IMG/VR virus record: IMGVR_UViG_2778261065_000019
Length of the DNA: 11,826 nucleotides
Source of the DNA: a virus
Taxonomy: Duplodnaviria; Heunggongvirae; Uroviricota; Caudoviricetes
Strand: one strand, 5' to 3'
Positions 6,092-8,598 of the stretch are shown here, one piece after another. Each line of letters begins with the position of its first letter. Position 1 is the stretch's first letter. The translations under genes were made by a program, and so were the position numbers. A model generated the notes under the pieces. It was not told the origin of the DNA, searched no databases, and saw nothing but the letters and a program-made list of their open reading frames with translations.

Positions 6092-7846
6092 TTATAAAAA
6101 CGCGTCGCACTCGTCTGTTGTTATTGCGTTAGTCTGCGTTACTCCCTTAACTTTCCGCGTAATATATTTATGTCCGTAAACTTTCGCGGCTGGCTTCATA
6201 GCCTTGCCAAAGTCATTTACGTTTAGCGGTTTGCTCCTGCCTGCGTACGCCATAAACGCCAGATAGACGCGATAAAGGCTGTTCCTGGTCGTGTACTTCA
6301 CTGAATCACCACCGCCACCCATCATCAGGCCGCGCGCTTCCTCCAGAAAATTCAGGAACTGGCAAAACTCAATAACCGGATCCGTCTGTTGCTTTATTGC
6401 CAGTGCTTCATCACCGTCACGCTGTTCCAGTAGTAAAGCCCGTGCCTTCTCAGGGTCGGTAAAGTTCGCCAGCAATCGGCGGATAATGACAGGGATTTCA
6501 GCCGCAATCTTTTCCGGTAGCTCCCTGTCTTTTTCGGCCTCACTGACGATATTGTCGAAACGGAAAATTATGCGACGACGTGACACACCTCCGGCCCGTT
6601 CGGTGAATATCATCGGGTTATTGTTGGTAGCCAGCACCACCGCCCTGATTACCGCCGTAAAACGCTTTTCATATTTCGGGTTAATTTCCACGGGGTCGCC
6701 GCCCGTGATTTTCTTGATGCCCGTTCCTTCGCCTGTATATTTCGGCTGGTCAGCCAGGACGATAAGACGACTCCCGACAACCTGCGCACGTCCACCAGCA
6801 TCATCAAGCGATGTCATCTCCGCGCTCACCGTGTTCTGTTTCCCTGCCAGAAGGCTGGCTATGTGCGTGAATGTACTTTTACCGCTCCCGCCGTCTCCGG
6901 TGGCCTCAATAAACATCTGCCAGTCGTACCGGTTCGCCATAATCATGTACAGCGCGGCACATATACGCATCATCTTGCGCGGGTCTTTTCCGGCTACGTG
7001 CTCAAGCCATTTATGAAAGTTTGGCGCGTTGTCGCGGATATTCTCCCCTGGTGCTGGTGGCGTGTACTCAATACCGTTGTGCGTGGTGATCCAGTTCTCC
7101 GGCGTGTGCGGGGAAAATTCCCCCGTTTTCAGGTCAAGCGCACCATTGGCGAACGGCAGCAAATCGCCGGACGGCTCGCCCATTGGTTCGGCAATAACTT
7201 TTAACGCTTCCACGGCGTTATTGATTACGCGCTTGCTGAAAGTGGCCCTGTGCTCTGAATAGATCGCCACCATTTCGCGGCTAAGTTCCATTGTGCTGAC
7301 CGGACACCATACCCCGCCGCGCCATACGTAAACGATTTCACTTTCAGGATGTACGCAAACGCCATCAAAGCGATCGGCAAGCAGCTGCGCGCGCTCACTG
7401 TCCGCCATCTGCGAAAGTTGCGCCTTTTGCTTTACCGGAAGCTCAATGACCAGACCATCAGAAAGATTCTGTCGCTCACGGGCCAGATATTCGCGCCAGT
7501 TCTGCACCTCTTGGCCGTGCATACCCTCAGGATAAAAATTTGCATCCTGTACGCCTGCCGCCGCCAGCTTCTGGCCAATCGCCTTTATCATTACTGGCGC
7601 AAGATATCCGGCCCTGAATATGCGCACGGATTTTCTGCCTTCCGGCACAATTTGCAGCTTATCCAGTTCTGATAACTGCTGCTCCCCAAGCCACACAGGA
7701 GGCTCATTATCTCCGGCCAGACGCGCGTCATGTTCCTGCCATTGTTTTGCGTGTGACCAGGCATCACTACCCGCAAAAATAATGACTTCTGTTTCTTTGT
7801 GTTTTATGCCGCGTGACTGCTGTTTTACGTTCGGTGCCAGTTTCAT
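6092..7846 (-). CDS. Primase / SF3-helicase replication protein (D5 / P4-alpha family, 584 aa)
   Basis: Walker A GDGGSGKST in the C-terminal half, typical of the P4-family phage/plasmid primase C-terminal domain, with a large N-terminal domain. ATGA overlap with the upstream 99-aa ORF. Domain assignment is by motif only. Confidence 0.85.
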   Translation of the reverse strand: MKLAPNVKQQSRGIKHKETEVIIFAGSDAWSHAKQWQEHDARLAGDNEPPVWLGEQQLSELDKLQIVPEGRKSVRIFRAGYLAPVMIKAIGQKLAAAGVQDANFYPEGMHGQEVQNWREYLARERQNLSDGLVIELPVKQKAQLSQMADSERAQLLADRFDGVCVHPESEIVYVWRGGVWCPVSTMELSREMVAIYSEHRATFSKRVINNAVEALKVIAEPMGEPSGDLLPFANGALDLKTGEFSPHTPENWITTHNGIEYTPPAPGENIRDNAPNFHKWLEHVAGKDPRKMMRICAALYMIMANRYDWQMFIEATGDGGSGKSTFTHIASLLAGKQNTVSAEMTSLDDAGGRAQVVGSRLIVLADQPKYTGEGTGIKKITGGDPVEINPKYEKRFTAVIRAVVLATNNNPMIFTERAGGVSRRRIIFRFDNIVSEAEKDRELPEKIAAEIPVIIRRLLANFTDPEKARALLLEQRDGDEALAIKQQTDPVIEFCQFLNFLEEARGLMMGGGGDSVKYTTRNSLYRVYLAFMAYAGRSKPLNVNDFGKAMKPAAKVYGHKYITRKVKGVTQTNAITTDECDAFL

Positions 7847-8142
7847 TTTTTACCCCTGAATCCGTTAATCATGGTTTTCAGCTTCTGGATGTTTGCCCGT
7901 GCCCTGGCGTTGCTGGTGGGCACGTTATGCGGCGCGGTCTGTACCAGAGAAAAATCACGCCGGAACTGATAAACAGGCATCACGCAATCATATTCGTAAC
8001 CTTCACGGCGGTAAGTTACGCACCGTCCCGCCACGCTTTTAATCGTTACCGTGCCGCCGTAGTTATCCCGGAAAATATCGCCGGGGCGGATTTCAGGCCG
8101 AGCGAGGCCACTGGCAGTAAAGCCAGAATTTTTCTGTTTCAT
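7843..8142 (-). CDS. Hypothetical protein (99 aa)
   Basis: SD GGAG about 11 nt upstream of the ATG at 8142; stop overlaps the primase start. No family recognised. Confidence 0.5.
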   Translation of the reverse strand: MKQKNSGFTASGLARPEIRPGDIFRDNYGGTVTIKSVAGRCVTYRREGYEYDCVMPVYQFRRDFSLVQTAPHNVPTSNARARANIQKLKTMINGFRGKK

Positions 8143-8147
8143 GGTTT

Positions 8148-8375
8148 TTATTCTCCGGTGTGATGCGCTTTATTATTCTCGTGAATTGCCATCACTGTAT
8201 TTAATTCGTTAATTACTGGCGTTAATAATGTGTGCACGGCAGAAAACATCATGGGATATGATTCATCGCCATTTTCCGGCACTTCCATTAACTTAAGTAA
8301 TAATGCCTCCATTTCCTTTGCGCGGATTAATGCATTCTCAGAATGAATAAGAACATTAAAGGGTATTTTATGCAT
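8148..8375 (-). CDS. Hypothetical small protein (75 aa)
   Basis: ATG at 8375 with AGGGAGA about 10 nt upstream; overlaps the upstream ORF stop by 8 nt. Track ORF offers an alternative start at 8411. Confidence 0.4.
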   Translation of the reverse strand: MHKIPFNVLIHSENALIRAKEMEALLLKLMEVPENGDESYPMMFSAVHTLLTPVINELNTVMAIHENNKAHHTGE

Positions 8376-8598
8376 CACACAGTTTCTCCCTGATTCTTTT
8401 AGTGTCCTCATTGAGGATGTCTGTAGCTTTTGTCAGTGAGTTTTTGATAATTATTTTTATTGTTTTAAATTTTCTTTTGTCGTACTCCGACTGTGATTTC
8501 CTCTCCATGATCTCTACCATGCAATTTATATCCACAAGCGCATGTATCAGTACTTTCAATGCTTCGCCTGCTGCGTCCGGCGTGTTTTTATTGCACAT
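8368..8598 (-). CDS. Hypothetical small protein (76 aa)
   Basis: Strong SD AGGAGG 6 nt upstream of the ATG at 8598, overlapping the last codons of the Icd/Ash-like ORF. Confidence 0.5.
   Translation of the reverse strand: MCNKNTPDAAGEALKVLIHALVDINCMVEIMERKSQSEYDKRKFKTIKIIIKNSLTKATDILNEDTKRIREKLCDA

Follow-up and report, generated by a model that had tools for sequence, protein, structure and literature searches.

The stretch of DNA considered here (hereafter, the window) comprises 11,826 nucleotides (nt) of IMG/VR virus record IMGVR_UViG_2778261065_000019, assigned to the Caudoviricetes. Its minus strand contains three small open reading frames (ORFs), here termed ORFs A, B and C, that lie immediately ahead of a gene encoding a replicase. 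ORF A (8368-8598, minus strand) begins at an ATG, with an AGGAGG sequence 8 nt upstream, and encodes a basic polypeptide of 76 amino acids (aa; isoelectric point (pI) 8.8; 38% GC). ORF B (8148-8375, minus strand) encodes an acidic polypeptide of 75 aa (pI 5.6; 37% GC), predicted to form a two-helix hairpin, and ORF C (7843-8142, minus strand) encodes a DUF4222 protein of 99 aa (pI 10.3). The replicase (6092-7846, minus strand), called a primase in a first-pass annotation of the same DNA, comprises 584 aa and includes D5_N, DUF5906 and Pox_D5 domains. ORF A is preceded by Icd-like ORF 2 (8588-8779, minus strand; 63 aa; ATG at 8777-8779), the first cistron to follow a C4-type RNA.

The presence of 76-, 75- and 99-aa ORFs at these positions, as claimed in the first-pass annotation, was confirmed, with their strand, which had not been given, being minus. 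Likewise, the claim that these ORFs overlap or abut each other and the start of the primase gene held true. Specifically, the stop region of Icd-like ORF 2 overlaps the start of ORF A by 11 nt, the ATG of ORF B lies within GATGCATAA, such that ORF B overlaps the end of ORF A by 8 nt, ORF C starts 5 nt past the ORF B stop, with the GGAG sequence serving ORF C being found inside the last codons of ORF B, and the ORF C stop and the replicase start overlap by 4 nt (ATGA). The five cistrons are, as such, arranged in a chain with no usable gap between them. Moreover, a simple consensus scan listed no minus-strand promoter-like or terminator-like site within 7843-8598.

Examination of related genomes revealed that the same coding sequences of 231, 228 and 300 bp, with the same junctions, are annotated by the NCBI Prokaryotic Genome Annotation Pipeline (PGAP) in several complete Escherichia coli genomes, in which homologues of Icd-like ORF 2 bear the name 'host cell division inhibitor Icd-like protein'. 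An independent gene caller agreed in assemblies encoding an ORF A protein identical to that of the window and presenting the same gene order. The lengths of the ORFs are exactly constant despite 10-25% divergence at the DNA level, and pairwise ratios of non-synonymous to synonymous substitution (dN/dS) were 0.39-0.50 for ORF A, 0.18-0.27 for ORF B and 0.43-0.54 for ORF C. When differences relative to a related locus (L008) were sorted according to codon position, values of 17/8/33 were obtained for ORF B, 14/18/26 for ORF C and 10/10/13 for ORF A. By these measures, the coding evidence is weakest for ORF A, the product of which presents 43 invariant columns across 17 homologues. Because of the gene calls, the constant lengths, the dN/dS values, the score of ORF C against DUF4222 and the hairpin predicted for ORF B, the three ORFs are considered to be more than chance open frames. 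They are genuine genes found in the middle of a five-cistron early/replication operon that comprises the Icd-like gene, ORF A, ORF B, ORF C and the replicase gene. Two plus-strand shadow ORFs (7813-8163 and 8402-8710) were set aside, given that the minus-strand ORF C is a match to DUF4222, that gene callers annotate only minus-strand coding sequences here in related genomes and that the minus-strand frames show dN/dS values below 1.

Of the three products, that of ORF C can be assigned to a family that has been studied. ORF C matched Pfam DUF4222 (PF13973) with a score of 86.1 bits (cut-off 27; E 1.2e-24), with all 53 profile positions being covered. The literature on DUF4222 leads to RgdR (ECs1581) of E. 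coli O157:H7 Sakai (PMC10877973, PMC3378721). ORF C shares 68% identity with ECs1581 (99/99 aa; E 2e-47) and 82% identity with C1493 of the satellite EcCICFT073 (99/99 aa; E 5e-58). On the basis of these alignments, ORF C is an orthologue of RgdR, such that the earlier statements that none of the three ORFs is recognisable and that all are of unknown function were wrong in the case of ORF C (PMC3378721). When ECs1581 was sought in the Sakai genome, it was found to encode 99 aa, to overlap the primase start by 4 nt and to come after a chain of overlapping small ORFs that starts with an Icd-like gene. Accordingly, RgdR (ECs1581; Sakai Sp7, also CP-933C or O-island 51) and C1493 resemble ORF C in length (99 aa), in DUF4222 content, in high pI (about 10), in the 4-nt overlap with the replicase start and in following a chain of small ORFs after an Icd-like gene. 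They differ from ORF C in that ORF C contains PGD rather than RGD, as well as in the N-terminal 20 residues and in residues 69-80. In addition, the source strain of the window may not contain the enterocyte effacement locus (LEE).

Flockhart et al. described both ECs1581 and C1493 as activating type III secretion and repressing motility, with activation of the LEE1 promoter being demonstrated for ECs1581 (PMC3378721). Binding of Congo red was raised by RgdR variants, and DNA binding by the purified protein (ECs1581) showed no sequence specificity (PMC3378721). In the RGD motif, residue 20 modulates RgdR activity, with the R20C replacement in ECs1581 not having abolished such activity (PMC3378721). 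In a separate study, Fillol-Salom et al. stated that RgdR is encoded by all of the E. coli phage-inducible chromosomal islands (PICIs) that they analysed (PMC6092414). In ORF C, the RGD tripeptide is not present, as residues 20-22 correspond to PGD (P20-G21-D22). Indeed, among 120 close homologues of ORF C, RPGDI was the commonest form (79 sequences), with RGD being found in only four. Residue 20 modulates RgdR activity, yet R20C did not abolish the activity of ECs1581, such that the RGD tripeptide is not strictly required for membership in the RgdR family.

Structure prediction, which the first-pass annotation had proposed as a means of assigning the three ORFs, offered models for two of the products. 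An AlphaFold2 model of ORF C, generated from a 68-sequence alignment, presented a mean predicted local distance difference test (pLDDT) value of 77.5, with the mean values of the core blocks being about 88-93. The model predicts an SH3/Tudor-like small barrel of five strands at residues 23-68, followed by a C-terminal helix at residues 77-96. Among the fold matches were SH3-like domains from two helicases, TraI and RecD2; the scores are modest, and the fold is a common one. A Foldseek search of viral models returned DUF1653 and uncharacterised proteins, and no sequence match of ORF C to a solved structure was significant in profile and sequence searches of the Protein Data Bank (PDB). For ORF B, a helical hairpin was predicted with confidence (pLDDT 85).

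No match of ORFs A and B to Pfam, NCBIfam or PADLOC was obtained. Each matched a single PHROG with no assigned function, that of ORF A being phrog_5146 (E 1.3e-9). Word-indexed searches of 5.8 billion proteins yielded 23 sequences for ORF A and 64 for ORF B, all hypothetical proteins of Escherichia or Shigella. When a profile of ORF B was compared with 1.84 billion cluster representatives, only 14 matches were obtained, all small unannotated proteins. No match was found when ORFs A, B and C were used in tblastn searches of 50,697 phage records or when the region was compared with phages by blastn, and neither profile nor sequence searches of PDB sequences with ORFs A and B returned a significant hit. 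Relatives were, however, detected in EcCICFT073, where, of four small ORFs, only the second (73 aa; 43% identity to ORF A; E 8e-12) and the fourth (77 aa; 41% identity to ORF B; E 4e-10) are homologous. As such, ORFs A and B are uncharacterised members of narrow, PICI-restricted families of small proteins found in Escherichia and Shigella. It was also observed that the conserved C-terminal ...HTGE sequence of the B family is encoded by ACC GGA GAA TAA (8148-8160, minus strand), and that these same codons provide the GGAG Shine-Dalgarno sequence of the rgdR-like gene. Since the HTGE codons supply this ribosome-binding site (RBS), the peptide motif and the RBS constrain each other.

The gene content of the remainder of the window identifies the element as an EcCICFT073-type Gram-negative PICI, that is, an ordinary E. 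coli phage satellite. The integrase gene (int; 10585-11826), the gene for an AlpA-family regulator (PF05930; 9864-10070) and the replicase gene (pri) are co-oriented, and phage-derived late genes are present without a full virion or lysis gene set. The replicase shares 98% identity with that of EcCICFT073. In the EcCICFT073 family, int, alpA and pri are essential genes, with alpA being switched on by the helper (PMC6092414, PMC10111431). Like the window, EcCICFT073 presents an Icd-like gene, small ORFs, a DUF4222 gene and a replicase gene in this order, followed by SSB, PerC, capsid and decoration genes. It differs in containing four small ORFs (76, 73, 73 and 77 aa) rather than ORFs A and B, in being without the isrK/C4 module described below and in its integration site. 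In E. coli, the island is found at yejM/tRNA-Pro, with yejM adjoining the element in assemblies carrying the ORF A protein and with a tRNA-Pro gene being seen between int and yejM in a closely related locus (L002). The ORF A protein sequence is present in 239 index blocks of NCBI E. coli assemblies.

Comparison of the window with Sakai Sp7, EcCICFT073 and seven other loci revealed which parts of the operon are fixed and which vary. A search for loci relying on peptide patterns in GTDB species representatives returned only two, the patterns having been too strict. The 4-nt overlap of rgdR and the replicase gene was seen in all ten loci. In nine of these, rgdR is directly preceded by a B-family gene at a distance of 5 nt; the idea that such a gene always precedes rgdR was rejected, since the Escherichia albertii locus (L006) is without one. 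At the start of the replicase, residues 1-163 (7358-7846, minus strand) share 82-87% identity with the corresponding residues of replicases that are otherwise of unrelated type. The unrelated remainder (420-550 residues) belongs to a DUF927-type protein in L007 and to the 710-aa ECs1582 replicase in Sakai. This N-terminal 163-aa module matched only phrog_2850, a family with no assigned function, and nothing significant was found among PDB sequences. The rgdR gene and the region encoding the replicase N-domain, usually together with a B-family gene, thus form a conserved block.

By contrast with this block, the region that separates rgdR from the Icd-like gene varies among loci, with anywhere from one to four small ORFs, overlapping one another, being found there. 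ORFs A and B occupy this position in the window and in three other loci (L001, L003 and L007), an extra 70-aa ORF precedes them in L008, EcCICFT073 contains the four ORFs listed above and Sakai Sp7 contains ECs1578, ECs1579 and ECs1580. In the E. albertii locus, a single ECs1578-like ORF and no B-family gene are found. ECs1580 matched the B profile weakly (14 bits) and the B-like protein of EcCICFT073 with an E value of 7e-7. The closest relative of the window, L002 (E. coli MFDS1022581), shares 97.9% identity over window positions 2548-8173 and 99.96% identity over 9062-11826. Window positions 8174-9061, which include isrK, C4, Icd-like ORF 2, ORF A and most of ORF B, are replaced in L002 (9556-10129). 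The replacement segment consists of degraded small ORFs of the EcCICFT073 type, and the break points of the swap fall in the conserved Icd 'EQEAR' region and in the conserved 3' end of the B-family gene. The GC content of ORFs A and B is 37-38%, as compared to 52-54% for ORF C, the replicase gene, the Icd-like ORF and int, a contrast consistent with the A/B cassette having had a separate origin.

Upstream of Icd-like ORF 2, an RNA module was identified on the minus strand. A C4-type antisense/immunity RNA (8834-8921, minus strand) was recognised by Rfam RF01695 with a score of 75.3 bits (cut-off 45) and folds into the structure of the C4 family. It is preceded by an isrK-like RNA (8943-9019, minus strand; Rfam, 80 bits, cut-off 50), overlapped by a c4-a1b1 target element (8980-9032, minus strand; Rfam), with a terminator hairpin followed by a T-run (8940-8965, minus strand) lying within the isrK-like region. 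The a2 site, UUGGCGU (8823-8829, minus strand; second copy at 8988-8994), is complementary to nt 60-66 of the C4 RNA, and the b2 site, UAACGAAGA (8790-8798, minus strand), is, like a site at 8971-8979, exactly complementary to the C4 loop (nt 44-53, with nt 44-52 facing b2). The b2 site covers the Shine-Dalgarno sequence of Icd-like ORF 2. In this manner, two pairs of target sites for exposed C4 segments were found, one of which includes the RBS of the first downstream ORF, as in P1/P4-type immunity RNAs. The isrK/C4 module was detected in three of the ten loci, namely, the window, L007 and L006, and is absent from EcCICFT073 and Sakai Sp7. As such, the notion that the module is general to these islands was rejected. 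Relatives of C4 and isrK in Gram-negative PICIs have already been noted (PMC10111431).

The organisation of the region resembles that of the left operon of satellite P4, where isrK (8615-8692) and C4 (the CI RNA; 8420-8507, inside ORF137, a Phage_ASH match) are followed by epsilon, orf151, orf106 and alpha. We take orf106 to be cnr (DUF5375). In P4, cnr has been placed between epsilon and alpha (PMC8628076). Both operons present an isrK-like element, a C4-type RNA in a Phage_ASH ORF, three small ORFs and a primase/helicase gene, with the ASH ORF being overlapped at its end by the first small ORF, which in turn shares 8 nt with the second. By analogy, ORF A, as the first small ORF found after the CI/C4 RNA and before the primase gene, would be the positional counterpart of epsilon. 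Similarity does not, however, extend to the proteins. ORFs A, B and C did not match PF25738 (the epsilon, or Derepression, family) at E values of up to 1, hhalign comparison of the A and B profiles with epsilon gave probabilities below 1%, and ORF C did not match Cnr/DUF5375 (hhalign probability 0.1%). P4 epsilon itself scored 170 bits against PF25738 and P4 Cnr scored 211 bits against DUF5375. After these Pfam and hhalign comparisons, the idea that any of the three ORFs is homologous to P4 epsilon or Cnr was rejected. Further differences are that no similarity of ORFs A, B and C to orf151 was detectable, that the replicase of the window is a different D5-type protein and that the rest of the window is that of a PICI (lambda-E-like capsid, decoration, PerC and SSB genes), with no sid, delta or psu.

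A second parallel is offered by the immI operon (C4, icd, ant) of P1 and P7, which likewise contains a C4-family RNA with two target pairs, one of these lying over the RBS of an Icd-like first cistron that overlaps the next gene. In work by Biere, Citron and Schuster in 1992 and by Riedel et al. in 1993, P1 C4 is reported to block icd translation, such that ant expression is blocked. An overview of the P1 immI operon is available (PMC8198154). In contrast to P1 and P7, the downstream genes here are ORF A, ORF B, rgdR and the replicase gene rather than an antirepressor gene, the module is optional among related islands and an isrK-type terminator precedes C4.

Together, these observations suggest how the operon may be controlled. 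Transcription would proceed leftwards from a regulatory region next to alpA. In this island, an immunity RNA of the P1 immI/P4 type would serve as an extra gate, with the C4 loop pairing with the RBS of the Icd-like cistron. In analogy to P1 C4/icd/ant, a block in translation of the first cistron would lead to loss of coupling and to transcriptional polarity that reach the replicase gene. Such a block should propagate because every later cistron overlaps or abuts its predecessor. Expression of ORFs A, B and C and the replicase gene would, in this scheme, require translation of the first cistron, with the overlaps arguing for translational coupling of these four genes. The first-pass annotation had claimed that the three ORFs are expressed together with the replication protein. 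Co-expression is the natural reading of genes packed into a single unidirectional early operon of a satellite; translational coupling, also part of that claim, is suggested by the overlaps. As for the products, RgdR-family proteins made together with the replicase may be general modulators of host transcription or of the nucleoid, or replicase cofactors, in either case serving the satellite cycle. ORFs A and B may act by binding host, helper or island proteins. Because it almost always accompanies RgdR and the replicase N-domain, B probably works with this block.

The reading that we favour, and which we regard as probable, is that ORFs A, B and C are genuine genes in an early PICI operon gated by C4, with ORF C encoding an RgdR-family protein and with ORFs A and B encoding cassette proteins. 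In broader terms, what is seen is the normal early/replication operon of a satellite type that is already known, with the C4 gate being an add-on of a kind already noted in such elements. Several points weigh against this reading. First, most related islands are without the C4/isrK module, which therefore does not account for the conserved manner in which the ORFs are packed. Second, ORF C of the window contains PGD, and since changes at residue 20 alter activity in published variants, the phenotypes described for RgdR may not transfer to ORF C. Third, the pattern of substitution in ORF A (10/10/13) is only weakly codon-like. Finally, ORF A has a strong Shine-Dalgarno sequence of its own, making independent translation possible.

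Of the alternatives considered, one holds that ORF C, possibly together with ORF B, encodes a cofactor or copy-number regulator of the replicase that acts, like P4 Cnr, through the N-terminal 163-residue module of that enzyme, with the host phenotypes of RgdR being side effects of non-specific DNA binding. The 4-nt overlap of the rgdR-like gene with the replicase start in all ten loci and the retention of an N-terminal module that is 82-87% identical beside an unrelated remainder would both be expected, as would the basic character and non-specific DNA binding of RgdR (PMC3378721), and P4 cnr (orf106) is similarly found immediately upstream of alpha (PMC8628076). Yet ORF C shows no homology to Cnr/DUF5375, a DUF4222 gene is also found next to xis in a lambdoid prophage with no such replicase nearby, other O-islands carry truncated copies of RgdR (PMC3378721) and RgdR alone alters LEE1 and motility in trans. 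Moreover, the conserved block need not be a functional unit, as recombination could simply have left it behind as a scar. We thus consider a replicase-directed role for ORF C to be unlikely. As concerns the lambdoid prophage, a gene encoding a 79-aa DUF4222 protein was seen beside excisionase remnants in the E. coli CFT073 prophage found at icd (L009; 15192-15431), from which it follows that DUF4222 proteins are not limited to the neighbourhood of satellite replicases.

The first-pass annotation had instead pointed to factors that derepress or interfere with the helper, as are commonly encoded by satellite early genes in this position. In this scenario, one or more of ORFs A, B and C would derepress a helper prophage, like P4 epsilon, or interfere with helper reproduction. 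The P4-like layout, in which the small ORFs that follow the CI/C4 RNA begin with epsilon and in which epsilon, like ORF A, overlaps the ORF before it, lends itself to this idea, as do the location of ORFs A and B in a swappable cassette and the fairly fast evolution of ORFs A and C (dN/dS 0.4-0.5), which would fit an arms race with helpers. Furthermore, the screen that addressed interference by EcCICFT073 considered only cloned genes downstream of ori and not those upstream of the replicase gene (PMC6739421). That screen nonetheless assigned interference to rppA (c1503), which lies downstream of ori (PMC6739421), and Gram-negative PICIs are induced by the helper via alpA rather than the reverse (PMC6092414). 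RgdR orthologues, moreover, affect host promoters without any helper (PMC3378721). At the sequence level, none of the three ORFs resembles the epsilon family (PF25738) at E values of up to 1 or upon profile comparison, and none has a PADLOC match at E values of up to 1. With the analogy to P4 epsilon not being accompanied by any match to PF25738, DUF5375 or PADLOC, the earlier proposal is not supported, and a helper-directed role is judged unlikely.

A bolder reading would have RgdR/DUF4222 act as a Tudor-like factor, comparable to CarD or to the C-terminal domain of UvrD, that docks on RNA polymerase or on another core host machine. Together with the B hairpin and the replicase N-terminal module, it would form a three-part unit for host takeover and the start of replication that is common to all E. 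coli PICIs and is switched by C4 in the present case. If so, the known influence of RgdR over LEE, motility and curli would be a by-product of a function in satellite replication. Such a unit is decidedly unlikely, and the RNA polymerase idea, which stems from the predicted fold of ORF C, is offered as a lead only. Lastly, it is very improbable that ORF A, and perhaps ORF B, is mainly a translated spacer of little function in its own right that takes ribosomes from a regulated first cistron to rgdR and the replicase gene so as to prevent Rho-dependent polarity, as, although the differences in ORF A are evenly spread over codon positions (10/10/13) with dN/dS of 0.4-0.5, the number and identity of the small ORFs vary from one to four among islands with the tight junctions being kept, and an upstream small ORF controls downstream gene expression in the IsrK system (PMC4825925), ORF B is under purifying selection (dN/dS about 0.2, with third-position changes being dominant) and has a confidently predicted fold, ORF A retains 43 columns that are invariant across 17 homologues and can still be recognised in EcCICFT073 (43% identity), and both ORFs are of exactly constant length.

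Returning to the reading of ORF C as an RgdR-family protein of an early PICI operon, this placement bears on how the family is viewed. The literature on enterohaemorrhagic E. coli treats RgdR as a virulence regulator carried on a 'cryptic prophage', yet the window contains an orthologue that is fixed in, and coupled to the replicase gene of, a PICI early operon. As a consequence, host transcription would be subject to RgdR-type effects that wax and wane along with induction of the satellite, and it is in the life cycle of the satellite that the family is likely to have its true role. For their part, ORFs A and B come from an exchangeable cassette whose members are without characterisation even in the prototype, EcCICFT073. 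The present view of PICIs is left unchanged, with the present analysis mainly correcting 'unknown function' for one gene and placing the other two.

Several further features of the window can be described. In addition to int and alpA, the island contains a gene encoding a PerC-family protein (660-1031, minus strand; 81 bits), a divergent YlcI/YnfO-like gene, an SSB gene, a lambda-E-type capsid gene (Phage_cap_E) and a decoration gene (HDPD). With both a PerC-family gene and an RgdR orthologue being present, the island combines members of two families for which action on the LEE1 promoter is known.

The RNA module itself lies within a 204-aa open frame (8588-9202, minus strand) that includes an Icd-like N-terminus, the isrK/C4 region and Icd-like ORF 2, and that matches Pfam Phage_ASH. 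The Phage_ASH match of this frame falls exactly over the RNA-gene region, as is also the case for the 'cI ORF137' of P4, the equivalent of this frame in position. Given that Phage_ASH matches lie over RNA genes both here and in P4, the Phage_ASH family largely corresponds to the translation of a conserved RNA gene. The same frame stays open for 423 codons, back to position 9859, and is in part antisense to the YlcI/YnfO gene.

Upstream of this frame, a promoter-like site for the operon (TTGACG-18-TACATT; 9311-9340, minus strand), identified by match to consensus only, is divergent from the YlcI/YnfO gene. In the plus orientation, antisense to the leader and a short way upstream of the initial Icd-like start codon, lies a weak SymR-antitoxin-like Rfam match (9203-9275; 33 bits; cut-off 61; E 0.004), which does not reach threshold and could reflect chance. 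Finally, a perfect 11-bp inverted repeat, GTGTAAGACAC ... GTGTCTTACAC (9300-9345, minus strand), flanks the promoter-like site on both sides and looks like an operator in the divergent region between the YlcI/YnfO gene and the operon.

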